A stretch of DNA of 24,000 nt from Mycoplasma elephantis ATCC 51980 (GCF_000687815.1 NZ_JHXU01000004.1:28366-52365); one strand, 5' to 3'; counted from the stretch's first letter, positions 1,491-24,000 are shown. A program made the numbers and translations. Notes: generated by a model from the letters alone, not told the origin.

Positions 1491-1517
1491 AAAAAAACAG
1501 CTAAATGCTGTTTTTTT
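1491..1517. terminator. bidirectional rho-independent terminator shared by two convergent genes
   Basis: aaaaaaacagc (1491-1501), loop taaat, gctgttttttt (1507-1517). An A-run and a T-run flank a GC-containing stem. It sits between the stop at 1486-1488 (+) and the stop at 1516-1518 (-). Confidence 0.7.
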
Positions 1518-4500
1518 ATTCTTTAATGAATTCTCCATTTTGTTTTGTTGTTTCATTATTTAGAAAAGGATAATATCCATATGCAGGTGTTTCCCTTCAT
1601 TTTCCATTTTGATTTTGACTTGTTGCATCCAATATAACTATTCCAGAAATTAGTGATTTAGTAACAGATATTCCTCTATATGAATAAGTTAAATTAACAT
1701 TTAATTGTCAGTTTAGCGATTTGTTGTCATTTCATCTTAATGTTACATCGCAACCACTTCTTCCAACTAAATTTGATCTAGTTCCAAACACAGGAAGATC
1801 TCCATCTTTTTTGAAGATTTCAGTATATTTAATTTTCTTATTATCAAATGAATCAAATTTTCTTGCCTCTAATGGAGCGTTATTGCGATATTTTTCACGC
1901 GTAAAACTTCAATCATTAAATGTTAATGTCATATCAGGTAATATTGTATTTTTAATATATGTAAATTCTAATGGTTGTGGCGCTTGATTTGGATATTTAT
2001 CAAAATGAAAGTGTAATCCATATTCTGCAAGAAATGGAGTTCAAAGTGGAATCTCCATTTTTGCATAACCGAACTCAGTACTTTCGAATACACGATCAAT
2101 TACTTTTTTAGGGTTTTCTGTTCCTATGGATTTAGTGATTTCATATGAAGTATATTTTTTACCATTTATAGTTTTGCTTATTGTATATGTTAATTCTAAA
2201 ATTCTATCATTATCTTTAGGGTTAGTTTTTATGATTTCTATTTTATAATCATTACTTACTTTAGAATTAGTTCTTTCATCATAATAAGTAATATCGCTTG
2301 TTTTAATTTCGCTAGGATCATTTACATGATACATATTTTGATAAAATTCACCATTATTTAATAATTTTAATTGAATAGATTCAGCCATATCATTAACATC
2401 TTTTTGACCGATGTTTATAAATCCACTAATTAATATTGTTTTATTTTGTATAACAGTGTCTAAACCAGTTCCCCGAGATACTTGAAATGTAATTGATTTT
2501 GTACCTTCGGTGTCATTGTTGCTATTTGTATCTTTTTTAACTAATATAGAAACTTTTTGTTCATTTATAATGTTGTCTCATGATTGATTTGTTAAATCTT
2601 TATCTATATTTTTGTAATTATTATCGTAGGAAACAATTGAAGGTAAAACATTTTTATATTGTGAAGTTTCGCCATCTTTTATGCTATCCAAAACCTTTTT
2701 GACAGCTTGTTCATTTTCATGTTTAGCTTTAGTCTTAAAACCATTCAAATAAATTTGTTTATTTATAGATACTTTATCAATACCTTCGCCAGTAGAAATT
2801 TTTAATGTAATAATTTTTTGTCCTAATTCATTATTATTTTGTGATTCTATTTCGAATTTTGCACCAATATCTTCAAATTTAGAAATTAGTAAATTAGAAT
2901 TATTAAGTAGGTTATTAATTGAATCGAATATAACATCTTCGGGTAATTTATTTTCATTGTTTGGAGTTGTAGTATATTCATTTTCAATTTGCGAAATAAT
3001 GTTATTAACTAAATTTTCATTAATTTGTTTTTTTGTTGTAAAATCAATAATTTTTATTGTTTTTTCAATTGATTTAGCATTATTTTTTGTTACTTGTAAT
3101 TTGATTTCTTTATAACCATCACTATTTATTTCATCACCTAAAATAGTTATATTTACTGATTTAGGCGCTTTTAAATAATCAAGTAATGATAAATCAATAT
3201 CATTTGCTAAAAGCTCAAAATTTCTAAAATAATTAAGTTCGCTTGATTGTTTAGATTTATTGTTTATTGTCTTGTAAGTTTCTTTAATATTTCCTAAAAC
3301 TTCATTAACATCATTTTCATCAGCTACATCTTGAGATGTTTTAAAATCACTTATGGTAATTGTGTGTTGTTTTTCAATGTTGTCCTTTTTAATATTGAGA
3401 ACAATTGATTTTGTGCCATCATTATCATTGTGTGTTTGAGATAGGATAGAAATAACTACGTCTTGTTTTGTTGCTAGAGTTGTTAAGTTTAAATTAGTAT
3501 CAAGATCTAAATTAGCTAAGTCGGAATAATTAATATTACTTGGTAAACTATTTTTATTATTTTTTGTTTCATTCATGCTTGAAATCATTTTAATGGTTTC
3601 GTCAACAATGTTTGAATTATTTTTTTCGGTTGTTAAGTATCCAGTAATAGTAATTTGAACAGTCGCTTCTCCAACTCCTTTTGTTATTTTAAGTTGTATT
3701 GTTTTAGAACCTATATCATTATTGCTTACAATATTATTCGTGTCTATGATTATGTTTGTATCCTCAATTATTAAGCTCTTTATATCAAAATTAATATCAT
3801 TATCTAATTGAGTAATGTTTAAGTATGAAACTAAATTAGGTAACTTATCTTTATGATTAATTGTTATTTTATCATTTGCTGAAATTGCTTCCAATTTGTT
3901 TTTTATTTCTTCGACTATCTTTTTGTCTTTTTTGTTTTGTTCATCTTGATTAAATGCTGCAGTTGTCTTAAATCCTGAAAGAACTATTTGAACATCTTTT
4001 GTAACTTTATTTTCATCAGTTCCTGTAGTTACTTCGATTACAAAAGTTTTAGAGCCATTATCATTGTTGTTTGTTTCCGATTTAATAGTAAGAGTCACAC
4101 CATATTTTTTAGATATGCTATTTGCGCCATCTACAAGATTTTGATTTGCTAAACACTTATCTATTTCCGAGATACCATTGATTAAACTTTTATAATCAAT
4201 ATCACTTGGTAATTTATCGTTAACATTAATCATTTTTTCTGATTTTATTTCACCAATTGCTTGATCAACTTTTTTGTGGTTTTCATCTAATTCTTTTGTT
4301 CTATAACCCGATAATTTTAGTGTTGCATTTTTATTTACATTACCTTTAATTAATTGTATGTTGAATAATTTAAATCCATCTCCATTTGTTACATCAATTA
4401 TATTAATTTGAGTTATTTTTTTCGTATCAATGAAATCTCTTTGAATATCTAATTCAATATCTTTATCTATTTCATTAAGTGAATTATAAGAAACAAATTC

Positions 4501-6819
4501 TGACGTTTTTTCTTTATTATTCAAGGTTTTTTGTTCTTTTAATAAATTTATTGTTTCTTCCAAAACAGCTAAATCTTTATGATCTTGTTCTGTTTGAAAA
4601 CCAATAACTTTTAATTCTATATTTTTAGATTGGTTATTACATTTAATTGTTACATTAATTATTTTTGTACCATCTTCATTGCTTGTGCTCGTAAATGAAA
4701 TATTGGTGTTTGTTTGATTTGCAATATTTTGTAAATCAAATGTTGTGTCTTCATCAAGTAACTTTAAATCAGAATTATAAGGATTATCAATGTACTCATT
4801 TAAATGATTTTTAGTTATAGATTCCTTATTTTTAGAAATTAATTCTATAGCTTTATCAACCATTTTTTCATCATATTTATTATTTGTTAAGTAGTTAATA
4901 ATTTTTACGTAATCTGAATTCACGATAACTTGATCATTATTATTTCCGCATCTTATTTCAAATTGGACTAATTTATATCCATCATTATTTTCTTCTTTAA
5001 TTAATTTTATCGATTCATTACTATTGATTTTTAATGTGTTATTTGGATCGTTAATTGAATCAATAAGTAATTTCATACCCCCATTAAAAACTACATCAGT
5101 TGATTTTAAATCCGAATTTTTGGTTACATATTCAGTTAAAATCCCTTGTTTAATTGCGTTTGCTCTTTGTTCATTATCATGTTTTGCTTTTGTTTTGAAG
5201 CCATAAATAGTGACTTTTTTAATTTCTGATTCTACTAATGTTGCACCAGTGCCCTTACTAATTTTTACATTAATAATTTTTTTGCCATCATTAGTATCTT
5301 CAAACAATGAAACATTAAGATTAACTTTGTGCGCATTTATCACTCTAAGGAAATTTATGCTCGTTCCATTATTGGTTAATAAATCTACGTCATTAACTAT
5401 TGTTTTAACATCATAATTATTTCAATTTACATCATTTGGAAGTTTATCTATTGTTTTAGTTATACCTTCAGTACTTAAATTGTTGAAAGCCAAGTCTACT
5501 TGTTCTTTATTAAATTGTTTTTCAGTTTTATATCCTTTAATTTTAAATGTATGAGTGCTATCAGTGGTGCTGCCACAAACAATTTTTAGGTTAATTGTTT
5601 TTTGCCCATTTACATCATCATTTGTTTCATAATTTGTTGGGTCAAAAACAAGTTTTACATTATATTTTTGTTCAATTTCCCTTAAATTTGCATCTATATC
5701 ATCATCGAACTCTTTGTATAATGTATATTTAACACTAGATGGAAGATAATTTTTGTTTTTTAATGTTATAAATGATTGTAATTCTTTTTTTGCATTGGTA
5801 ATTGCTTGTAATTCATTTTCTTTAATATATTGTAAATTAGTTTTAAAACCAGATAATGTAATTATCTTATCTTCAAAAGCATTGTTTTTTTTCACATGTA
5901 TTTTGATTTTTTTTGTACCATTTTCATCATCATTTTCAAATTTACCTGTTTCATTCAAATCAACAACATATATTTCTACATTATGTTCTTCCTTTAATTT
6001 TTTAATGTCTACATTAGGCAAATCTAAATCAATACTTTTTACATCATTGTATATAACAAGTGATGGTTTAAGATTTTGGTTATTTCCACTTATTGTGTCA
6101 TCATTTATTAACGACAATACTTTTCTAACAATTTCTAAATCTTTAGCATTATTATTGTAACCATTAATTGTGACTGTAATTTCACTTTTGGCAAGAGGAT
6201 CATCATTTTTAGCGATTATTAGAACTACCTCTTTAGTTCCTTTTTCGTCGTTATTTTTTGATTCACCAATTTTAGTTTTTCCGGTAATTATAATTTGAAA
6301 TTTATCTTCAATTTCTTTAAATGTTGACAAACCTTTATTTAATTCCATATCATTTTTGAATTTATCGAACTCTTTATAATTAAATTCACTTGGTAAAAGA
6401 GTTGAATATTGTTTAGTTTTTATACCAACTAAATAACTAGATACATCATTTTTGATTTTGTTAATATATTTTTGGTTTTCAGATTCTTCCTTTTTAAAAT
6501 CTGTTAATGTTTTTTCAAATTTGTATGATTTATTTCCTGATACAACTGTACCAAATACTTTTAATTCACCAGTTAAGTTGTTAGGTTCTAATTTATGAAT
6601 GGTGTATGTGGCGTTATTTGGAAAATTTGAAAAAAATAAATCATCTTCCTTGATGTCTGATGGTAGTTTTTGTTCCTTTTTGTCTATTGGTTTAAATTCA
6701 AGTAAATTAACATCTACATTTTGTGCTCTTTTTAAAAATAAATATGTAGTTGCTATAGCTGTTATTGTTAATGGCGCTATTAGCAAAAACCCTAATAATA
6801 TTTTTCTTTTCATTCTCAT
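1516..6819 (-). CDS. very large (1767 aa) membrane-anchored surface protein with 13 divergent tandem ~100-aa modules and a distinct C-terminal domain
   Basis: ORF-track pieces 5422..6819, 2578..5343 and 2041..2388 are all in one frame (distances divisible by 3). They are separated only by TGA (forward tca at 5422, 2578, 2041). I translated the linking segments and 1516..2040 by hand and found no TAA or TAG until 1516-1518. The N-terminus MRMKRKILLGFLLIAPLTITAIATTYLFL is a signal anchor without a lipobox Cys. Confidence 0.85.
2420..6410 (-). repeat. protein-level tandem domain array (13 recognisable modules) inside the large surface protein
   Basis: A recurring module reads (K)LPS-x-(I/V)-x-Y ... 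D-x-D ... N(D/N)(D/N)-G-(T/S)-K-x-I-x-(L/V)-x-(I/V) ... (I/L)-x-(I/L)-x-G-(F/Y)-(K/R/Q)-T. Module ends include INGYNNN, LSGFKTN, IKGYKTE, IYGFKTK, VIGFQTE, LSGYRTK, LSGFKTT, ITGYLTT, ISDFKTS, IIDFTTK, LNGFKTK and ISGFINI. The copies have diverged and I saw no nucleotide-level identity. Confidence 0.7.
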
Positions 6820-6915: not shown

Positions 6916-6992
6916 GGCGAGTGTGGCGAAGTGGTTAACGCATCGGGTTGTGGCTCCGACATACGCGGGTTCGATCCCCGTCGCTTGCCCCA
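6916..6992 (+). tRNA. tRNA-His (anticodon GTG) with encoded G-1 and CCA
   Basis: A cloverleaf folds by hand. The anticodon stem is TCGGG/TCCGA with loop TTGTGGC. The T-arm has GGTTCGATCC. An extra 5' G pairs with discriminator C73, which is a His hallmark. The 3' end is CCA. Confidence 0.9.
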
Positions 6993-12166: not shown

Positions 12167-12190
12167 AAAAAGCAGATATCTGCTTTTTTA
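12165..12190. terminator. bidirectional terminator between convergent nrdE and crr-like genes
   Basis: aaaaaagcagat/atctgctttttt is a palindrome flanked by an A-run and a T-run. It overlaps both stop codons. Confidence 0.7.
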
Positions 12191-12679
12191 TTTACTCGCT
12201 TTAAACACTAAAGAATTATTTGTTATTTTTCCATATTTTATGCTTGATACTTTATTATATCTAGATTCAGGAATAACAACCATTATAACACCAGAAAAAT
12301 CAAGATGAGATTTTAAATACTTAAAATCAACACATAAAATAGGATTTTTCTTGGAAATTTGTTGATTTTTGTTGACTAATAGCTTAAAACCTTGCCCTTT
12401 TAAAATTGATGTTTTACTTCCTATATGCAAAAGAATATTCACGTTTTTTGATTCAATTACAATTGCATGATTTGTATCATTTATTGCAGCAATTTTTCCC
12501 GAAATAGGTGAACATATAGTTACATCATTCTCGTTTGGTTCTATAATTACTCCCTCTCCTAGATGTCCCTCACAAAAAACATTATCATTTAATGATTTTA
12601 ATGGCAAAACATCTCCATCACATGGAGAATAGATTTTTTTCTTAGCCTTAAATAAATTTAAAAATTCCTTCAATATCAT
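12188..12679 (-). CDS. crr: PTS EIIA component, glucose family (Crr-like), stand-alone
   Basis: 163 aa. It aligns by eye with E. coli Crr. Both catalytic-site histidines are retained: TNHAIVIES (compare TNHAFSIES) and LLHIGSKTSILKGQGF (compare FVHFGIDTVELKGEGF). Confidence 0.85.
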   Translation of the reverse strand: MILKEFLNLFKAKKKIYSPCDGDVLPLKSLNDNVFCEGHLGEGVIIEPNENDVTICSPISGKIAAINDTNHAIVIESKNVNILLHIGSKTSILKGQGFKLLVNKNQQISKKNPILCVDFKYLKSHLDFSGVIMVVIPESRYNKVSSIKYGKITNNSLVFKASK

Positions 12680-14250: not shown

Positions 14251-14389
14251 TTCCCACTCCTTCCCACTATCTATACATATTAAACCACAAATATCCAAAA
14301 TAATAATTTTTTTATCAAATTTTTTGAAAAATAATGTGGTTCAAAATCTCATTTCACCATTTTTTAAAATGAAAATTTATAATAATTTA

Positions 14390-15541
14390 ATGAAAATTAA
14401 AGAATTTCTTTCACTTTTTGCATTTATGCCAATAATATTTACAACTTCATGCACATATTTTTTCAAAGAAAAGGAAAAAAGTGAGCAAATACCTAATGCT
14501 CCAATTTCTTCAAAACCTACATCAAAACCATTAGTAATAAATAAAGATAATAGTGCTATAAAAATAGCCCACTGGAATGTAAAAAATCAAAATGGTAAAA
14601 ATAATTTTAAAAATATAGCTTTAACTAATATTATTAATGCCGAAAATTTTGATATTGTCGGATTAACGGAAATTGATGATTTGCTTGGCGTTGTGTCATT
14701 AATAGATATTTTAAATAAAGCCAATTTTGAATATAAATGAGAATACAAAATATCCAATAAAGACTATACAGCTATTAAAAAAGGAACTCAACTAGAAATG
14801 AATTCAAAACAAAGGGAACATGTTGGAATAATCTATAAAAGTAGTAAGGTTAAACTTATTGCGGATACATTATATGAAAACATTCCATGAAGTAATTTGT
14901 TAGATTTAAATAATCCTAGTGCCGATAAGTACTCATATATTCGTCCTCCATATGGAGCAAAGTTTTTAGACTTAAACACAAATCAAGATTTTACTTGTGT
15001 ATTTGCCCATTTTGATTCTCCGGGAATAGCGAAAGAAAATGAGGACGGTGCTAAAAAATTTAATAGTGATTTTGGAGATATGGGTGCACAAGAAGCTAAT
15101 GAAGCGCTCAAGATTAATGGTGTAATGAAATTTTATGATGCTTGAGATGGGGATAATAATGAACTAATTTTTATGGGTGATACAAATATAAAATTAGGAA
15201 AACAAAATTTAGTATTTAAAAATATTATTGATGATAAGTATACATTTTACTCTGAAGATAATGAACAATGGAAAACATCGCTTAAAACATCAGTTTTTGG
15301 TGAATATTCTCAACCTTATGACAAAATAATTTATAAAGGCGATGCAAAAATAACAAATCCAGGTTTGATAAAAATATATGATTCATTAAAAAATAAATAT
15401 ATAGATCAAAAATGGATTGATGAAGTAATAGCTAGTAAAAATCCCCCACCTAAAAACCCTGTTATTTACCCATATACATTTATTTCAGATCATTGTCCAA
15501 TTTATTTAACTATAAATTTAGATAAAAACGATAAAAATTAA
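14390..15541 (+). CDS. membrane nuclease lipoprotein, endonuclease/exonuclease/phosphatase (DNase I-like) family, MnuA-like
   Basis: The signal peptide plus lipobox reads MKIKEFLSLFAFMPIIFTTS|C. Four ORF-track pieces share one frame and are joined by TGAs at 14738, 14888 and 15143. EEP motifs are IAHWNV, IVGLTEI, FAHFDSPG, FMGDTNI and ISDHCPIY. Alternative starts lie at 14369 (ATG) and 14324 (TTG). Confidence 0.8.
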
Positions 15542-16876: not shown

Positions 16877-16953
16877 GGAGAAGTAGCTCAGTTTGGCAGA
16901 GCGCTACGTTTGGGACGTAGTGGTCGCAGGTTCAAATCCTGTCTTCTTCACCA
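16877..16953 (+). tRNA. tRNA-Pro (anticodon TGG)
   Basis: Acceptor GGAGAAG/CTTCTTC. Anticodon stem CTACG/CGTAG with loop TTTGGGA. T-loop GGTTCAAATCC. CCA is encoded. Confidence 0.9.
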
Positions 16954-16959
16954 TTTTAT

Positions 16960-17036
16960 GGGGGGGTAGCTCACCTGGCTAGAGCGCCTGCCTTGCACGC
17001 AGGAGGTAGAGGGTTCGAGTCCCTTCCTCTCCACCA
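16960..17036 (+). tRNA. tRNA-Ala (anticodon TGC)
   Basis: Anticodon stem CCTGC/GCAGG with loop CTTGCAC. The G3:U70 identity pair is present in acceptor GGGGGGG/CCTCTCC. T-loop GGTTCGAGTCC. CCA is encoded. Confidence 0.9.
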
Positions 17037-17039
17037 TTT

Positions 17040-17116
17040 GGCACTGTAGCTCAGTTGGTTAGAGCATCCGGTTCATACCCGGAAGGTCAAGAGTTCGATC
17101 CTCTTTGGTGCTACCA
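17040..17116 (+). tRNA. tRNA-Met, elongator (anticodon CAT)
   Basis: Anticodon stem TCCGG/CCGGA with loop TTCATAC. The 1:72 position is a G:U wobble pair rather than a mismatch, and the anticodon stem lacks the three consecutive G:C pairs of an initiator. Its position matches the Met slot of the known mollicute and Bacillus cluster order. Confidence 0.8.
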
Positions 17117-17138
17117 TTTGGATATATAACAGCATACT

Positions 17139-17214
17139 GGACCCATAGCTCAATGGTTAGAGCACCCGGCTCATAACCGGTAGGTTGCAGGTTCAAGTCC
17201 TGCTGGGTCCACCA
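17139..17214 (+). tRNA. tRNA-Ile2 (genomic anticodon CAT, presumed lysidine-modified)
   Basis: Acceptor GGACCCA/TGGGTCC with anticodon loop CTCATAA. The Ile rather than Met assignment rests on position in the conserved Pro-Ala-Met-Ile-Ser-fMet-Asp-Phe order, not on the sequence alone. Confidence 0.65.
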
Positions 17215-17215
17215 T

Positions 17216-17308
17216 GGGCAATTACCCAAGCCCGGTTGAAGGGACTAGTCTTGAAAACTAGCAGGGGCTTCACGGCCCGCGGGGGTTCGAATCCCTCATT
17301 GCCCGCCA
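17216..17308 (+). tRNA. tRNA-Ser (anticodon TGA), class II with long variable arm
   Basis: Acceptor GGGCAAT/ATTGCCC. Anticodon stem CTAGT/ACTAG with loop CTTGAAA. The long variable arm is GGGGCTTCACGGCCCGC. 93 nt with CCA encoded. Confidence 0.9.
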
Positions 17309-17344
17309 TTTATCTATTTTTATAGATACCAATAACTTTCACGT

Positions 17345-17421
<77 letters not shown>

Positions 17422-17422
17422 T

Positions 17423-17499
17423 GGTCCAGTGGTAAAGTGGTTTAATACGCCTCCCTGTCACGGAGGAGATCGCGGGTTCAATTCCCGTCTGGACCGCCA
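17423..17499 (+). tRNA. tRNA-Asp (anticodon GTC)
   Basis: Acceptor GGTCCAG/CTGGACC. Anticodon stem CCTCC/GGAGG with loop CTGTCAC. CCA is encoded. Confidence 0.9.
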
Positions 17500-17500
17500 T

Positions 17501-17576
17501 GGCTCTGTAGCTCAGTTGGTAGAGCAACGGACTGAAGCTCCGTGTGTCGCTGGTTCGATTCCTGCCGGAGCCACCA
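17501..17576 (+). tRNA. tRNA-Phe (anticodon GAA)
   Basis: Acceptor GGCTCTG/CGGAGCC. Anticodon stem ACGGA/TCCGT with loop CTGAAGC. T-loop GGTTCGATTCC. CCA is encoded. Confidence 0.9.
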
Positions 17577-17587
17577 TATGATGAAAA

Positions 17588-17650
17588 TCGCCTATTAAGG
17601 CTTTTTTTATAAAATTTACACTTTTCTTATTTTGAAGTGTAAATTTTTTT
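17588..17650 (+). terminator. tandem terminators after the tRNA cluster
   Basis: A small hairpin gcct-atta-aggc is followed by ttttttt (17590-17608). A strong 12-bp hairpin follows: aaatttacactt (17612-17623) pairs with aagtgtaaattt (17635-17646), then a T-run. Confidence 0.75.
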
Positions 17651-17750
17651 ACAATTTATTTTCTTTTTAACAATTTTGTTTACATTTTAATTACTATATA
17701 AATTTATAATTTATATGGTGGTAATAATACCACTAAATAAAGGAGATAAA

Positions 17751-19220
17751 ATGAAATACAAAAAATTATGCAGTGTTTTAATACCTGTAATATCTATTGG
17801 GATAACATCAAGTGTAATATCGTGTTCAATTGATGAAGAAGCAATTAAAAATTTTGAAAAAAATAATGAAGCTTTAATAAATGTTGATTTAGCCAAACTT
17901 GATAATGATATTTTAAAAAATCTCGAAAAAGCAGAAAATGAATATTTATCTTTGTCTAAAAATGAGCAAGATAATAAAAAAGATATTGGTGTTAAAATTC
18001 AAACTATTAAAGGAATTAAAAACTCACATGATTCATACTTAAAATCATATAAGAGTCTTTTAGAAATGGAAGATGAAAAACTTGAAAATGAATATAATGC
18101 ACGAGGTTACAAAATAGTTTATAAAGCAATTGAAGCTTTTGAAAAATTTAATAGCCTTGACGATAATACAAAAAATCTTTTAATTAAGAATTTACCTAAT
18201 TCATATTCAAGTATTAATGATGCTAAAAAGGATCTAGAAAGACGTGAAAATCTTTTAATTAATTTACAAAAAAAAGACTATCCAGTTAAAGTACCAAGTC
18301 AAGCAACATACAAAAAAATAAATGAACTTTTAGAATATGTAAAATCATTATCTGGTAAGACAATGGCGGAAAAGGTTGTTGCTATTTCAGAAAAATTCTT
18401 AGGATTTACTTATGTGCCAGATAAAATGATTGGTTCAATAGAAAAAGGGGTTGAAGAAATTCTTGTTCTTGATATATTGGGTGTTGACTGTTTTACCTTT
18501 TTAGATTATACTGTTGCCTTAGCAATGTCAAAAGATATTGATGAATTTAAAGAAAATGTTGCTAAAGTAAGATATATAGATGGACGTGTTGATTACACTA
18601 CTCGTAAACATTTCTTTACTGATTGAGGTCATGAAAATATTAAAATTGCAAATAATGCAGTTGATTTAATGGCTGAAGATGCTAAGAAAATAGCAAATGA
18701 CAAAAAATTGATTATTAATATTAAGAAAAATATTAATGCTAAAAAAGAAGTCGACAAGAAAGTAACAGAGTTTTGATTACCTGGAGTAAGAACAACAGAT
18801 CGTGAATTTGATGCAATTAAATTTGAAAAAGATCACAGAATACTAGATGAAAAATTCATTATGGATAACTTTAAAGAAGGTGATTTTGTAATGGTTGGAA
18901 CCAACCTAGATGGTCTCGATGTTACACATTGCGGAATTTTAATCTTTAAAGAGGGTCCGGTTTATGAATATGATGAAAATGGTGTTGAAAAACGTGATGA
19001 AAAAGGCAATCCAATAGTTAAAAAAGATAAAGATGGAAAAGAAGTAAAAGCTTTAAAACCATTTTATAGAAATGCTAAATGAAATAAACATGTTTTAGAT
19101 GTTGATTTACTATACTACATGCGTGATAGAAATTGAGATACAAAAAACAAGAAGTGATATGAAAAACCTAAAGTTCCATATATGTTATTCTACCGTGTAG
19201 AAGAATCATTAGATGATTAA
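17751..19220 (+). CDS. surface lipoprotein with a C-terminal AmiA/DUF1460-like (NlpC/P60-fold) putative N-acetylmuramoyl-L-alanine amidase domain
   Basis: The RBS aaaggag lies 5 nt upstream of the ATG. The lipoprotein signal is MKYKKLCSVLIPVISIGITSSVIS|C. The frame is continuous through TGAs at 18624, 18774, 19080, 19134 and 19155 to TAA at 19218-19220 (489 aa). The C-terminal half has LDILGVDCFTFLDYTVALA, VRYIDGRVDYTTRKHFFTDW and GDFVMVGTNLDGLDVTHCGI. As I recall them, these match the Cys and His blocks of PF07313. Confidence 0.6.
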
Positions 19221-20101
19221 TGAATATGATAAATAATAATATTACAGATTTAGATACAGAAAAAAGAAATAGAAATACAAAAAATTTATCTTCAAGTTCA
19301 ACATTAGAAATAATTGAAATGATAAATAATGAAGATAAAAAAGTTGCATATGAAGTAATTAAAAATAAAGAAAGTATAGCCAAAGTTATTGATATAGCAT
19401 ATGAATGCCTAAAAAATAAAAAAGGCAGAATTATTTATATAGGCGCGGGAACTAGTGGAAGAATAGGAGTACTAGATGCTACCGAAATTTGACCTACGTT
19501 TGGTGTAAAAAATAAAATTATAGGCCTTATAGCTGGTGGTAGAAAAGCTCTTTTTGAAGCAGTTGAAAAAGCTGAAGATAATATACAATTTGCAATTGAT
19601 GATTTAAATAGTGTAAATATTTCATCAAATGATGTAGTTATCGGAATTACTGCTTCAGGTAGAACACCTTATGTAATAGGTGGCCTAAAATATGCAAAAT
19701 CGATTGAGGCAAAAACAGTTCTTATATGTAATTCTATGCCTAGAGAAAAAAACAACTTTATAGATCAAATTATTTGTGTTTCAACAGGGGCTGAAGTAAT
19801 AGCGGGTTCTACAAGAATGAAAGCAGGGACTAGTCAAAAAATGGTATGCAATATGATTTCAAGTGCGGTGATGACAAAATTAGGTTATGTCGAAAGTAAT
19901 TATATGATTAATCTAATACCAACAAATTATAAACTTGAAGAACGTTGCAAAAACATGATTAAGGATTTAACTAATGCTTCTTATGACCAAATTGAAAATT
20001 GCTTCAATCTTACAAGGAATGTTAAATTAACACTTTTGATGTTACAAAAAAATATTTCAAAAGAAGAAGCGGAAAAAATTTATAAGGAGTTATATGGATA
20101 A
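19220..20101 (+). CDS. murQ: N-acetylmuramic acid 6-phosphate etherase MurQ
   Basis: 293 aa, with a TGA at 19490 read as Trp. It aligns by eye with E. coli MurQ over its whole length: STLE...IN.EDK.V, GR.IY.GAGTSGR.G.LDA.E, PT.GVK, GLIAGG, VE.AED, DVV.GI.ASGRTPYVI.GL.YA, GAEV..GS.RMKAGT.QK.V.NM.S. The start ATG overlaps the upstream stop (TAATG). Confidence 0.88.
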
Positions 20102-20405
20102 AACAAAAATTGAACAGTCGGCTTTTGAAATAATCTCATATTCAGGAGCAGCAAAGGCATTATTTTCTGAAGCAATAGATTATTTAATCAAAAATGATGT
20201 TGTAAAAGCTACTGAAAAAATTAAAGAGGGTAAAGAAGAATTAACAAAAGTTCATAAAGCACATTTTGAATTAATTTCATGCGAAGCTAAAGGAACCGAA
20301 CTTGATTTTAGTCTTTTATTAACCCATGCAGAAGATCAATTCATGTCAGCGGAAAACGCAATGTTTTTAGCTGAAAAAATGCTTTTATTTAAAAAAGCAA
20401 ATTAG
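20094..20405 (+). CDS. PTS EIIA component, lactose/cellobiose (Chb) family
   Basis: 103 aa in the three-helix-bundle EIIA pattern: IISYSGAAKAL, HKAHFELI, and the phosphorylation His in LLLTHAEDQFMS (compare ChbA LVHAQDHLMT). It overlaps the murQ 3' end by 8 nt (ATGGATAA). Confidence 0.85.
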   Translation: MDKTKIEQSAFEIISYSGAAKALFSEAIDYLIKNDVVKATEKIKEGKEELTKVHKAHFELISCEAKGTELDFSLLLTHAEDQFMSAENAMFLAEKMLLFKKAN

Positions 20406-21157
20406 TTATATGATGATGTTTGTAAATACTGAAAATTATCTTCATCATTAATTAAATACTCAAAAATTTTAATGTAAAATGTTACAACTTTAAGTAATGA
20501 ATCGGTCGAATAAAGTCTAAGACCACCCTTAAAATCTTTAACATTTTCAACATGATTAAAAACATTAATTTTATCTTTAATCACTTTATCATTTGGAATA
20601 AAACTACTTGATAACATAATTTTTGCCTTAGTAATTTTTATAAGATCAAGTATTCATGTGTGTTGAAGTGATAATGAGTTAATTATGACTAAATCATTAT
20701 TTGTTAGAAGCTTACTTAAACCAATTTGATCGTATTTACTTTCAGGAGTAAAAACACACTTATTTAATCTTTGTAGTTTACGGGCAAAATCTAAATTATT
20801 TATATATGAGCCTGAAACACCCACAAATAATATTTTGTGAGAATTTGAAATTAAATTAGCCGCATCTTTGATAACTTGATTATAAATATTGCCTTCATAT
20901 TCTTTAGATATTGATTGGTTATGAACAAAACAAAGTTCATTAAAGTTATTAAAATCACATTTTTTAACAAATTTAGAAATAGCGGCAGATGATACATTTA
21001 ATAACTGTGCCAAGTCTTTTGATTTATAAATCTTAGTTGAATTTTTTACTAATTTTAATATCTCATTAGCTATATGTGCATTTGTTATCGATGAATTTCT
21101 ACGAATTGCATTTAATTTCATTAAATATGTGTATTTACTATTATCAACATTTTTCAC
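20402..21157 (-). CDS. RpiR/MurR-family transcriptional regulator (HTH + SIS domains)
   Basis: Pieces 20654..21157 and 20402..20617 share one frame and are joined through TGA (forward tca 20654-20656). The N-terminal HTH is ITNAHIANEIL...KDLAQLLNVSSAAISKFVKKCDFNNFNEL, which resembles MurR. A SIS block KILFVGVSGSY follows. The longest ORF starts with GTG at 21157. The ATG at 21121 (MKLNAIRRN...) is an equally plausible start. Confidence 0.8.
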
Positions 21158-21193
21158 TTAAATATTATATTAAATAAAACGAAAGGAGTAAAT
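21158..21193. promoter_or_regulatory. very short divergent control region between the regulator gene and the PTS operon
   Basis: Only 36 nt separate the regulator GTG from the GTG of the first PTS-operon gene (72 nt if the regulator starts at 21121). The region contains tattatatt (-10-like) and the RBS aaaggag. No operator could be defined by eye. Confidence 0.3.
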
Positions 21194-21787
21194 GTGTTAA
21201 CCAAAAAATTTACAAAAGTGTTTTGATTATCTATGCTAGCAACAATTTTTATGATTGTTTCAATTTTATTGTTTGTTCCTAGTGTAATTTATGTTGGAAA
21301 ATCAAAGCAAATTCAACATTTTAACTTTGATAATATTAATTTTATTATCTTAGTTGCTATTCAAAATATATTTATTTTATTACTTTTAAAATATTTAATT
21401 ACAAATGCGATTAAAGATTTAAAAGATAAAACTTGAGCAAGTAACAAAGATACAAAACTCAAAACTATCATGTTTTATTTTGTATCATCTATTATTTTAT
21501 TATTAGTTATTGCATCAAGTGTATTTATTTCATTTGGAGTTGTGGTTTTTGAAGGGGATCTAAAACCATTAGGAACCATAACTACTGTTGATGGTAAAGA
21601 GGTTCATACAATCTTTTCAGATGAAGTAGTTAGAAACGCTATGACTGTAAATGATAAAATTAAATATATTTTATTTAGTTTTATATTTGCATACTTTTTA
21701 GTTATCTTTATATTACTTATAACAAAAATAAGTTTAGTAATAAAAAATACTGTAACAAACAAAAAACAAATAAAGGAAGCAATCTAA
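21194..21787 (+). CDS. uncharacterised 4-TM membrane protein, first gene of the PTS operon
   Basis: A GTG start lies 5 nt after the GGAG RBS. The ATG at 21192 hits a stop after two codons. Pieces 21233..21436 and 21470..21787 are in the same frame and are joined through the TGA at 21434. The 197-aa product has four hydrophobic segments. Its stop overlaps the EIIB start (TAATG). Confidence 0.65.
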
Positions 21788-22107
21788 TGAATGTTCTTTT
21801 AATTTGTTCTGGTGGAATGTCAACGCATATATTGATTAGTTCACTAGAAAAAGAAGCAAAGCAATTAGGAATACCTTTTAAAGCCAATGCTATTGGTGTT
21901 ACAGAAATTGAGGAATATCCAAATAATGATTACCAAATTATTTTGGTTGCCCCTCAAATTAGATTCAAGTTTATTGAGTTTGAAAAATTTGCAAAACAAA
22001 AAAACAAATTAATATATCAAATTCAACCAATGGAATACAATCCAGTAGGAGCATCAAAACTCCTTAAAAATGTAAAAAAAATTATGGAGGAAAACAATGT
22101 CATCTAA
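21787..22107 (+). CDS. PTS EIIB component, lactose/cellobiose (Chb) family
   Basis: 106 aa. The active-site Cys motif is MNVLLICSGGMSTHIL (compare ChbB LFCSAGMSTSLL). It also has ILVAPQIRF (compare LLGPQIAY). Confidence 0.88.
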   Translation: MNVLLICSGGMSTHILISSLEKEAKQLGIPFKANAIGVTEIEEYPNNDYQIILVAPQIRFKFIEFEKFAKQKNKLIYQIQPMEYNPVGASKLLKNVKKIMEENNVI

Positions 22108-23581
22108 CCAAAAGGTTAAAAAAACTAGTGTTGGTATGAATATTCTTAAATGAATTGAACGTACCTTTATGCCAATAATTAGTAAGATTAGTGATAACCG
22201 CTACATAAATGCTATTCGTAATGGTATGGTAGCCGTAATCCCTATATTGCTAATTGGTTCAATGTTTCTTATTTTATTTTTCTTCCCTATTGGAAAAAGT
22301 GAAACATTAGGAATTAATGTTTTACTACCAATTGATGGCGGTCGTTGAGCAAGATTCTTTATGTTACCATACCGTCTTACATTTCCAATGATGGGATTCT
22401 TTGTAGTTATAGGAATAGCTAGGTCTTTAGCTCGTAATTACAAACTAGATGATCAACAAGGCGTATTCATTGCTCTTATTGCTTATCTAATTTCAATAGT
22501 TGGTCCAACATATAGTTCAATTGGTAATCCTGCATTTACATCAGGTTCATTCGGGTCAGCAACTATTTTTGGCGGAATTATTGTTTCTATTATTTCAATT
22601 GAAATATTTAGATTATGTATTAAATATAGAATAATGATTCGTTTACCTAAATCTGTTCCAGAAGTTGTTGCAAAACCATTTAATGCAATTATTCCAATGC
22701 TTTTTGTAATGGTTCCTGCAGTTCTTTTATTTAATGTATTAAAATTCGATATTCACAAATTTGCATCATTATTATTACAACCAATCCAAGGATTAGTTGC
22801 TGGAAATAACTTTTTTGGCTTTATAGTTGTAATATTATTTGTTATGTTATTATGAATTGCTGGTATTCATGGAATGGCAATAGTTGGTGCTGTTGCTCGT
22901 CCATTTTGACTTATCGCTATTGATGATAACTTATCATTAACTGAAACACTTGGTAGAAAATCAATAACAGCTGCTGATGGAGCTAATATTTTGGTGGAAC
23001 CATTCTTTCAATGATTTGTTTGAATCGGTGGAGCTGGAGCTACATTAGGTCTTTTAATTGTTATGTTATTTATTGCTAAATCAAAATACATAAGAGCTAT
23101 TACATATCCTTCTATTGTTCCAGGTATATTCAACATAAATGAACCAGTTATATTTGGTTACCCACTTGTTTTAAATCCTATTTTAGCAATTCCTGCCATT
23201 TTAGCCCCTCTTACAATGGGTACATTATCATTTATTGCAATGAAACTTAATTTAGTAAATGTACCTATTATAGTTGTTGGGTGAACATTACCTTCACCAG
23301 TTGGTGCGGTGCTTGCAACGAATTTAGATTGAAGAGCATTAGTTCTTTGTTTATTAATGATCGCTGTATCATGCGTAATATGATGGCCATTTGCTAAAAT
23401 GTATGATAATGTATTATTAAAACAAGAAATCGAAGAAGAAGTTCAATTACGTAAAGAAAACGCAGAAAAAGAAAATATCATCTTTAATGAAGAAGAAACA
23501 AGAGCACAAGTTTCAAAAGAATTCCATTCAAGAAGTATTTTTAAACGTAATAAAAAACAAGTAAAAAACATAGAAGCTTAA
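22097..23581 (+). CDS. PTS EIIC permease, lactose/cellobiose (Chb) family
   Basis: The ATG at 22097 follows the ggagg RBS and overlaps the EIIB gene by 11 nt. A single frame runs through nine TGA codons and joins pieces 22361.., 23063.. and 23399.. (494 aa). Features are multiple TM segments, the LWIAGIHG motif typical of this EIIC family, and a charged C-terminal tail. Confidence 0.88.
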
Positions 23582-23598
23582 AAAAACAGAAAGGGAAC

Positions 23599-23931
23599 AT
23601 GCCAGAATGATTAGTATATAGTTTATTAGTATTAACCTTGATAATTGGATATTTGTTAGCAACACTTATTGATCGATACACAAAGTTTTTTAAAAGAATA
23701 AGTTCGTGAATTATTGTTCCATTACCTTTTATAGTTTTGTTTTTGATAGGTATACCCCTATTATTATTTAAGGTTGATTTTGATATTATATTTTACTGTT
23801 GTTCTTTCCCCTTTTTGTTTTTTTGTGGCGTATCTATAGCTGTATATATCGAAAGATATATTATTTGAAGAGAACGCAAGCTTGAAAAAGCAAAAATAGC
23901 ACAAGGTGTGCAAAATAAAGATAAAAAATAA
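23599..23931 (+). CDS. uncharacterised small 3-TM membrane protein
   Basis: An ATG follows the aaaggga RBS. The frame is continuous with TGAs at 23608, 23707 and 23866 read as Trp. The 110-aa product is MPEWLVYSLLVLTLIIGYLLATLIDRY...IIVPLPFIVLFLIGIPLLLF...FYCCSFPFLFFCGVSIAVYI, followed by a basic tail. The standard-code ORF track misses it. Confidence 0.55.
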
Positions 23932-23945
23932 CGAAAGGAATTTAA

Positions 23946-24000
23946 ATGCTAGGTATTTCAATTTATCCTGATAAACAGGATAAACAAGAAATTATAAAAT
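23946..24000 (+). CDS. 5' end of a DUF871/MupG-like (6-phospho-N-acetylmuramidase family) gene, cut by the window edge
   Basis: The RBS gaaagga precedes an ATG at 23946. Only 18 codons are visible: MLGISIYPDKQDKQEIIK. The N-terminal (M)LGIS(I/V)Y(P/L) pattern is what I recall for DUF871 proteins. The call is tentative because of the short length. Confidence 0.35.
   Translation, partial: MLGISIYPDKQDKQEIIK

Follow-up and report, generated by a model that had tools for sequence, protein, structure and literature searches.

The 24,000-nucleotide (nt) stretch of Mycoplasma elephantis ATCC 51980 analysed here (GCF_000687815.1 NZ_JHXU01000004.1:28366-52365, in the following called the window) contains murQ, the gene of the N-acetylmuramic acid (MurNAc) 6-phosphate etherase, together with the genes for the EIIA, EIIB and EIIC proteins of a phosphotransferase system (PTS). 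The transporter tied to murQ is a PTS of the lactose/cellobiose (Lac/Cel) family and not a MurP of the glucose (Glc) family, in agreement with the original prediction, which had been made from the sequence of the window. So far, PTS uptake of MurNAc sugars has been ascribed only to the Glc-family MurP, and uptake of the disaccharide of N-acetylglucosamine (GlcNAc) and 1,6-anhydro-MurNAc (anhMurNAc) to AmpG, a permease of the major facilitator superfamily (MFS). Judging from gene content and its conservation, we consider it likely that the Mycoplasma PTS serves the catabolism of MurNAc sugars, and we lean, with distinctly less assurance, towards the specific model that GlcNAc-anhMurNAc is the imported sugar. 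A Lac/Cel PTS for sugars of the MurNAc type is not described in the literature that is searchable in full text, a scope that does not extend to subscription literature such as Reith 2011 on the murK cluster of C. acetobutylicum.

Family assignment of the transporter and its partner proteins

The identities of the genes, the conserved active-site positions, the conserved clustering and the phylogenetic position of the EIIC are observed directly. As had been proposed, EIIA, EIIB and EIIC are all members of the Lac/Cel family: EIIA matches PF02255 (E=3e-25), EIIB matches PF02302 (E=2e-12) and EIIC matches PF02378 (E=3e-49), and the EIIC also passes TIGR00410, the model of the Lac/Cel IIC subfamily, with 294 bits at a cutoff of 236. 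The three motifs on which the proposal had been based are present, namely THAEDQ in EIIA (residues 77–82, nt 20322–20339), LICSGGMST in EIIB (residues 5–13, nt 21799–21825) and WIAGIHG in EIIC (residues 253–259, nt 22853–22873). His78 of the EIIA motif is aligned with the conserved histidine of E. coli ChbA and L. lactis LacF and Cys8 of the EIIB motif with the conserved cysteine of E. coli ChbB, residues which we take to be the phosphorylation sites of these proteins. The only solved relative of the EIIC is the B. cereus ChbC (3QNQ), with which it aligns at 214 bits over residues 17–444; other EIICs of the B. cereus group are closer to it (317 bits). H258 of the GIHG motif and E349 of the NINE motif correspond to H250 and E334 of 3QNQ, and both columns are at least 97% conserved among 108 EIICs; presumably the two residues lie at the site of the sugar C6, as they do in 3QNQ. 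By Pfam search no Glc-family EIIB or EIIBC of the MurP type is found in the cluster. The organism has other PTS branches, as a stand-alone Crr-like EIIA-Glc, which has no relation to the Lac/Cel system, is encoded 7 kb away beside the genes of ribonucleotide reductase.

Within the Lac/Cel family the EIIC stays below the cutoffs of the cellobiose equivalogs TIGR00359 (294 bits vs 434) and PRK09592 (239 vs 503), of the lactose equivalog TIGR00394 (200 vs 614) and of the diacetylchitobiose equivalog PRK10297 (157 vs 760). In a neighbour-joining tree (108 EIICs, 422 columns, 100 bootstraps) the Mollicute EIICs are monophyletic with 100% bootstrap support, and a single clade comprises all Mollicute loci and all loci from a scan of species-representative genomes (see below), to the exclusion of LacE, EcChbC, BbChbC, BcChbC (3QNQ), the GH1-linked EIICs and the remaining controls. 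The distances of the non-Mollicute members of this clade to the EIIC of the window range from 1.05 to 1.36. Thus, the EIIC does not cluster tightly with any characterised cellobiose or chitobiose transporter, since it scores below all equivalog cutoffs and stands outside the references in the tree (bootstrap 59%).

Two arginines set the EIIC apart from its characterised relatives. R93 (nt 22373–22375) corresponds to position 74 of 3QNQ and R268 (nt 22898–22900) to position 260. Both are kept in 100% of the Mollicute EIICs and in 98% of those linked to murQ or anmK, the two positions are conserved to 85% and 67% in relatives that have only a GH170 gene nearby, and arginine is found there in none of nine reference Lac/Cel EIICs. 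R93 and R268 are candidates for binding the lactyl carboxylate of a MurNAc sugar. Further residues specific for the clade are E301, Q305, W306 and W309.

The partner proteins are assigned with similar means. MurQ passes the models NF003915 (339 bits, cutoff 168) and NF009222 (295 bits, cutoff 255) and is marginally under the cutoff of TIGR00274 (298.4 bits vs 302). It aligns over its full length with the solved MurQ proteins 4S12, 4LZJ and 1NRI (220 bits to 4S12, residues 11–285) and retains the DA[ST]E and VExAED motifs, in which we take the catalytic glutamates to lie. The protein encoded directly upstream of MurQ is an AmiA-like lipoprotein (PF07313/DUF1460, E=5e-37, 128 bits, cutoff 27) having a signal peptide with the lipobox VIS-C. 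Its motifs VDC, RxH..DW and GLDVxHxGI align with those of the B. uniformis AmiA (4H4J/4Q5K), and the cysteine of VDC and two histidine positions are kept in comparison with 2P1G and 4H4J; Cys-His-His is the catalytic triad of the AmiA/DUF1460 amidases (PMC10318531). The characterised DUF1460 AmiA converts GlcNAc-1,6-anhMurNAc-peptide to GlcNAc-anhMurNAc and peptide (PMC4600125).

The original prediction had also associated the transporter with DUF871, that is with MupG of glycoside hydrolase family GH170. Such a gene is indeed present downstream of the EIIC gene; within the window, however, only its first 18 codons are found, whose translation MLGISIYPDKQDKQEIIK matches the N-terminus MLGISIYPEKQDKDEIMK of MupG from M. 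lipofaciens. The latter protein carries both MupG Pfam domains (PF19200 and PF05913), and the AnmK of M. lipofaciens passes the NCBIfam equivalog NF007148 with 443 bits at a cutoff of 387. For MupG there is no model in NCBIfam.

Conservation of the gene cluster

We compared eight Mollicute loci, the window and seven sister loci, the latter gathered separately from the scan of species-representative genomes. The closest EIICs (50–72% identity) all belong to Mycoplasmopsis and Mycoplasma, with M. lipofaciens, M. ciconiae, M. hafezii, M. columboralis, the strains NEAQ87857 and Ms02 and uncultured contigs as carriers. Common to all eight loci is the arrangement EIIA-X-EIIB-EIIC, in which X encodes a predicted membrane protein with four transmembrane (TM) segments, and all seven sister loci continue in the order EIIA-X-EIIB-EIIC-(Y)-MupG-AnmK, Y being a small membrane protein. 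The mupG gene is complete in the sister loci, where mupG and anmK overlap or are at most 20 nt apart in a single run on the same strand. MurQ is encoded in six of the seven sister loci, and the predicted co-occurrence of the EIIC with murQ is thus seen in seven of the eight Mollicute loci. The AmiA-like lipoprotein is found in four of the seven by one count and in six by another, and nagB and nagA lie directly upstream of the cluster in strain NEAQ87857 (L086).

Outside the Mollicutes, we examined the nearest 80 EIIC loci listed from the scan (32–42% identity), mostly from Bacillota (Bacilli, Clostridia and Negativicutes) but including two from Fusobacteria and a single one from a gammaproteobacterium. 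Their neighbours were defined by unbiased clustering of all open reading frames (ORFs) within 7 kb of the EIIC gene. The most frequent were GH170/MupG (49 of 80 loci) and a BadF/BcrAD-type sugar kinase of the MurK/GlcNAc-kinase family (47), followed by AnmK (34), an RpiR/MurR regulator (27), GH4 (24), MurQ (21), GHL10 (20) and a YdjC/ChbG-like deacetylase (8). Small membrane proteins fell into two families, seen at 22 and 11 loci. As controls served eight Lac/Cel loci that are more remote, namely the E. coli chb, Borreliella cp26 chb and L. lactis lac loci, two GH1-linked loci, two from E. faecium and one from Listeria, which were screened for murQ, anmK and GH170 by tblastn and not by annotation names. 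Either murQ or anmK lies within 7 kb of the EIIC gene in 41 of the 80 nearest relatives compared with none of the eight controls (Fisher p=0.006). This linkage holds across the differing gene orders of Mollicutes, Clostridia, Bacilli and Negativicutes. In C. butyricum, for example, the RefSeq annotation gives a single cluster murQ-IIB-IIC-GH4-IIA-hyp-hyp-BadF-anmK-MupG-MurR, and P. megaterium has a similar one. In addition, AnmK or a BadF-type (MurK-type) kinase accompanies all 21 murQ-linked loci, and the eight loci with a ChbG-like YdjC protein have murQ without exception and a ChbF-like GH4 in seven cases.

A different arrangement occurs at nine loci of the B. cereus group (L014, L020, L023, L025, L033, L040, L046, L051 and L054), where EIIB and EIIC are followed by a small TM protein, AnmK and a BadF kinase, and most of which add a GHL10 protein and a GNAT-aminotransferase fusion. 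At these nine loci neither MurQ, GH170 nor GH4 is found within 10 kb, and there is no EIIA.

Proposed pathway and alternative substrates

The substrate class that had been proposed, a GlcNAc-β1,4-MurNAc-type analogue of chitobiose, fits these data and is probably a specificity not described before for the Lac/Cel family. Since the operon includes anmK and an amidase of the AmiA/DUF1460 type, we narrow this class to the 1,6-anhydro form. The gene content leads us to infer as follows which substrate is imported and where it is phosphorylated, what the GH170 enzyme cleaves and what the regulator does. The AmiA-like lipoprotein at the cell surface would strip the stem peptides from GlcNAc-1,6-anhydroMurNAc-peptides shed by neighbouring bacteria, and the PTS would import the resulting GlcNAc-β1,4-(1,6-anhydro)MurNAc and phosphorylate C6 of its non-reducing GlcNAc. 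The GH170 enzyme encoded downstream, a MupG homologue, would hydrolyse the phospho-disaccharide to GlcNAc 6-phosphate (GlcNAc-6P) and anhMurNAc, AnmK would convert anhMurNAc to MurNAc 6-phosphate (MurNAc-6P), and MurQ would split the latter into GlcNAc-6P and D-lactate. Entry into glycolysis would then be by way of NagA and NagB. Repression of the genes is presumably the task of the RpiR/MurR-like protein.

As anhMurNAc has no free C6 hydroxyl group, phosphorylation of the disaccharide at C6 would be possible on the GlcNAc only. The characterised Lac/Cel systems likewise phosphorylate the non-reducing sugar (PMC6262408; PMC12791066). A glycosidase would then be expected to release GlcN-6P or GlcNAc-6P and an unphosphorylated reducing-end MurNAc or anhMurNAc, to be followed by a kinase, and the pattern of neighbouring genes matches this expectation. 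The kinase at all 21 murQ-linked loci and the association of YdjC with murQ and GH4 point to a cytoplasmic kinase acting on a freed reducing-end sugar, and not to the PTS, as the apparent source of MurNAc-6P.

The proposed route would share its substrate class, GlcNAc-1,6-anhMurNAc with or without peptide, the order AnmK before MurQ and the AmiA-type chemistry with the peptidoglycan recycling of Gram-negative bacteria (AmpG, AmpD/AmiD, NagZ, AnmK, MurQ) and with the Bacteroides AmiA (DUF1460). It differs in that AmpG is an MFS permease that does not phosphorylate and NagZ (GH3) cleaves the disaccharide, whereas here group translocation by a PTS would be combined with a GH170 phospho-glycosidase. 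Among the Mollicutes, MurNAc catabolic genes (murP-murQ) are known from Spiroplasma diminutum, a species without peptidoglycan, and have been interpreted as a means to use bacterial debris (PMC3762197). In that case a canonical murP was reported, whereas the cluster described here has a Lac/Cel PTS together with mupG, anmK and amiA-like genes.

Several points weigh against this model. The node that separates the murQ/anmK-linked clade from the reference EIICs has a bootstrap support of only 59%, the nearest characterised EIICs are chitobiose transporters (distances of 1.34 to BbChbC and 1.39 to BcChbC), and the L. paracasei ChbC is outside the sample of the tree. The control set is small (n=8) and hand-picked. 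GH170 occurs without murQ or anmK in 27 of the 80 relatives, and one Mollicute locus, L088, has neither murQ nor amiA nearby. Finally, the only biochemically defined GH170 enzyme, MupG of S. aureus, acts on MurNAc-6P-GlcNAc, in which the two sugars stand in reverse order (PMC6262408).

One alternative is that the transporter is an ordinary PTS for N,N'-diacetylchitobiose whose GH170 module merely lies beside peptidoglycan-sugar genes, or that chitobiose is the main substrate and muropeptide disaccharides are incidental ones. GH170 is in fact not specific for MurNAc, because the chitobiose PTS of Borreliella adjoins one: beside chbA, chbB and chbC on cp26 of B. burgdorferi a full-length GH170 protein is encoded (L094, 1933–3030) that is 42% identical to the Mollicute MupG. 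L. paracasei, too, uses diacetylchitobiose by means of a cellobiose-type PTS and a GH170 enzyme (PMC12791066), and the 27 GH170-only relatives may be plain chitobiose systems. We therefore dropped GH170 as a marker specific for MurNAc. The predicted co-occurrence of the EIIC with DUF871 is found at the 49 loci counted above; what does not stand is that GH170 alone would indicate MurNAc. The family marks a general module for phospho-disaccharides of the type GlcNAc-β1,4-X, and its position beside the chitobiose PTSs of Borreliella and L. paracasei implies that it can handle a GlcNAc-6P-β-glycoside, the cleavage our model asks of it. The comparison also suggests that the cp26 protein is the missing phospho-chitobiase of Borrelia; its annotated name, "alpha3-beta1 integrin-binding protein", looks misleading.

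The chitobiose PTSs of E. coli (chbBCARFG), B. burgdorferi (chbABC on cp26), B. cereus (ChbC, 3QNQ) and L. paracasei (chbABC-chbD-chbE, PMC12791066) resemble the PTS of the window in family, in the three-protein layout, in the histidine of GIHG and the glutamate of NINE and in the phosphorylation, here predicted, of a GlcNAc-β1,4-linked disaccharide on its non-reducing GlcNAc. They are accompanied by GH170 (Borreliella, L. paracasei) or by GH4 and YdjC (E. coli), and both solutions are also found in the murQ-linked clade. Nevertheless, those loci are devoid of murQ and anmK, and the window EIIC is far under the ChbC equivalog cutoff, lies outside the chitobiose transporters in the tree and has the two clade-specific arginines, which are most conserved in the murQ/anmK-linked members. 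Mere adjacency is also difficult to reconcile with the tight packing of the genes (murQ overlaps the EIIA gene by 8 nt, and the sister mupG and anmK genes form the closely spaced run described above) and with a linkage to murQ and anmK that survives changes of gene order in four groups of bacteria. We regard a chitobiose transporter as unlikely on balance; the predicted reducing sugar is MurNAc or anhMurNAc where the chitobiose systems have GlcNAc.

Somewhat less probable still is the route of S. aureus with an exchanged transporter. In this case the Lac/Cel PTS would import MurNAc-β1,4-GlcNAc, the product of an amidase and an endo-N-acetylglucosaminidase, and phosphorylate C6 of the MurNAc, MupG would release MurNAc-6P and GlcNAc, and MurQ would finish the pathway. 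The two systems have much in common: mupG, murQ and a murR-like gene are grouped here, and the mupG-murQ-murP-murR operon of S. aureus (Kluj et al. 2018, PMC6262408) shows the same grouping; there a peptidoglycan disaccharide is imported by a PTS, a GH170/DUF871 enzyme acts on the phospho-disaccharide, MurQ removes the lactyl ether and the regulator is of the RpiR/MurR type. MupG is a proven 6-phospho-N-acetylmuramidase in S. aureus (PMC6262408), and both of its Pfam domains are present in the Mollicute MupG. However, AnmK would be left without a role although it is encoded in all seven sister clusters, and the same is true of the AmiA/DUF1460-type amidase, whose characterised product is GlcNAc-anhMurNAc. 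The freed GlcNAc would need a kinase, which none of the clusters of the window group encodes, and the MurNAc or anhMurNAc kinase present at all murQ-linked loci of the Bacillota would be needless if the PTS made MurNAc-6P. In addition, when a staphylococcal GH170 that is linked to a Lac/Cel PTS is used as the query, S. aureus MupG is not among the best 120 matches, which all have an identity of 50% or more, an absence which hints that the S. aureus enzyme and the Lac/Cel-linked GH170 proteins form separate subfamilies. The S. aureus system also differs in its transporter, a single Glc-family EIIBC instead of separate Lac/Cel EIIA, EIIB and EIIC proteins, and the clusters of the window type add AnmK, two small membrane proteins and, at the surface, the AmiA/DUF1460 amidase. 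The substrate predicted here is reversed, its non-reducing sugar being GlcNAc and its reducing sugar anhydro-MurNAc, and the wall-less host would be scavenging, not recycling.

That the PTS imports monosaccharidic MurNAc and, as a functional analogue of MurP from another family, hands MurNAc-6P directly to MurQ is very improbable: murQ directly adjoins the EIIA gene, to which it is translationally coupled, and its partner in E. coli and Spiroplasma diminutum is a MurNAc PTS, but the operon regularly includes GH170, a phospho-disaccharide glycosidase, and AnmK, the cited characterised Lac/Cel substrates are all β-linked di- or oligosaccharides, and MurNAc kinases accompany murQ in all 21 relatives that have it.

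Import of the GlcNAc-(anh)MurNAc disaccharide by a dedicated Lac/Cel PTS would, if true, extend a well-studied transporter family by one substrate class, give anmK a role in Gram-positive bacteria, provide GH170, a family hardly explored so far, with a second activity and explain hundreds of clusters in the Bacillota that are generically annotated as "PTS sugar transporter IIC / DUF871 / BadF ATPase". A wall-less Mollicute would keep a complete pathway for the peptidoglycan fragments of other bacteria, which bears on cross-feeding at mucosal surfaces and possibly on the pool of immunostimulatory muropeptides. Only tentatively do we go further and propose the first PTS for an anhydromuropeptide disaccharide (GlcNAc-1,6-anhydroMurNAc), a new Lac/Cel substrate subfamily marked by R93 and R268, which might constitute a widespread, unrecognised route of the Bacillota for the products of lytic transglycosylases and might be kept by a wall-less avian-type Mycoplasmopsis purely to feed on the wall turnover of its neighbours; with a surface amidase of the AmiA type, the mycoplasma might in addition destroy NOD-stimulating muropeptides of the tracheal-cytotoxin type at the mucosa. 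The hypothesis is directly testable, since M. lipofaciens, C. butyricum and P. megaterium are cultivable carriers of the cluster or of its relatives.

Gene arrangement, regulator and accessory genes

The window has a GC content of about 25% and comes from a Mollicute, and its genes are unbroken when they are translated with genetic code 4 (TGA=Trp); the EIIC gene alone contains nine in-frame TGA codons. An ORF list made with translation table 11 was rejected, since murQ and the EIIC gene fall into pieces when TGA is read as a stop. The resulting features are collected in Table 1.

Table 1. Features of the window, with positions counted from its first nucleotide
Feature	Position	Strand	Basis
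1767-aa protein	1516-6819	-	N-terminal signal/anchor, internal repeats
tRNA-His	6917-6992	+	
Crr-like EIIA-Glc, stand-alone	12188-12679	-	PF00358
Lipoprotein-like protein	14324-15541	+	weak endonuclease/exonuclease/phosphatase domain
Eight tRNA genes (Pro, Ala, Met, Met, Ser, Met, Asp, Phe)	16877-17576	+	
Stem-loop plus T-run sequences	~17590-17655		
AmiA-like (PF07313/DUF1460) NlpC/P60-type N-acetylmuramoyl-L-alanine amidase domain, surface lipoprotein	17751-19220	+	PF07313, lipobox
murQ, MurNAc-6-phosphate etherase	19220-20101	+	NF003915
PTS EIIA, Lac/Cel family	20094-20405	+	PF02255
RpiR/MurR-like regulator (HTH_6 + SIS)	20402-21157	-	weak Pfam matches
X, 197-aa predicted 4-TM protein	21194-21787	+	TM prediction
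PTS EIIB, Lac/Cel family	21787-22107	+	PF02302
PTS EIIC, Lac/Cel family, murQ/anmK-linked clade	22097-23581	+	PF02378, TIGR00410
Y, 110-aa small membrane protein	23599-23931	+	position 3' of EIIC
mupG (GH170/DUF871) 5' end, first 18 codons, cut by window end	23946-24000	+	N-terminal match

Stops and starts overlap or abut within amiA-murQ-EIIA and within X-EIIB-EIIC; the stop of the amiA-like gene overlaps the start of murQ by 1 nt, and 14 nt separate the end of Y from the start of mupG. The original prediction had placed EIIB and EIIC in an operon divergent from that of murQ and EIIA. This part does not stand, as all these genes lie on the plus strand; only the regulator gene is on the opposite strand, convergent with the EIIA gene, whose stop its own stop overlaps by 4 nt, and divergent from X-EIIB-EIIC. 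The PTS genes of the sister genomes examined follow one another on one strand without interruption, and the regulator of the window is 39–44% identical to regulators that flank the sister clusters outside the operon. From this resemblance we conclude that the two same-strand PTS units reflect a lineage-specific relocation of the regulator gene and are not a pair of divergent operons. The Pfam matches of the regulator to HTH_6 and SIS are both under the gathering cutoffs.

Regulatory signals gave little to build on. A scan of positions 17500–24000 for promoters and terminators yielded fewer promoter-like sites than shuffled controls and no terminator between the two units, so that transcripts extending beyond murQ-EIIA would run antisense through the gene of the regulator. 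A shared operator was sought in the two promoter regions and in the sister loci, which have only a low-complexity AT-rich 12-mer in common.

X belongs to no Pfam or NCBIfam family. A gene of the X type lies between EIIA and EIIB in all seven sister loci and is matched by tblastn in only two of them (28–31% identity), and a profile of X revealed no relationship to the families of small TM proteins. The position of X is constant while its sequence is poorly conserved; possibly it is an accessory PTS subunit specific to this lineage. Homologues of about 180–250 residues with four predicted TM segments are found at L002 9091–9693, L086 9157–9693, L087 9109–9693 and L088 9163–9693.

At the position of Y a small gene is present in six of the seven sister loci, five of which were aligned with Y. 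Small membrane proteins of 88–134 residues, forming two families, directly follow EIIC or EIIA in the Mollicutes (Y) and at 33 of the 80 Bacillota loci, for example L054 11550–11816 and L049 11651–11938. The similarity of Y to one of these families is only suggestive (hhalign E=2e-4, probability 48%). Such proteins may be a conserved fourth component of the PTSs of this EIIC clade.

The downstream end of the cluster is peculiar in M. columboralis. The record NZ_LR215040.1, a 17-kb "plasmid" of this species, starts inside mupG and carries anmK (positions 21–1038 of the record; L004, 11942–14180). It has been reported as the first avian mycoplasma plasmid, and according to the same paper its entire sequence is also present in the chromosome. 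Either the cluster borders an integrase-bearing element here or the record is an assembly artefact. In the literature, AnmK of M. columborale appears as an annotation only.

The eight tRNA genes immediately precede the amiA-like gene and are followed by the short stem–loop plus T-run sequences, whereas the tRNA-His gene stands alone. The 1767-residue protein contains many internal repeats of about 100 residues and is probably a surface protein.

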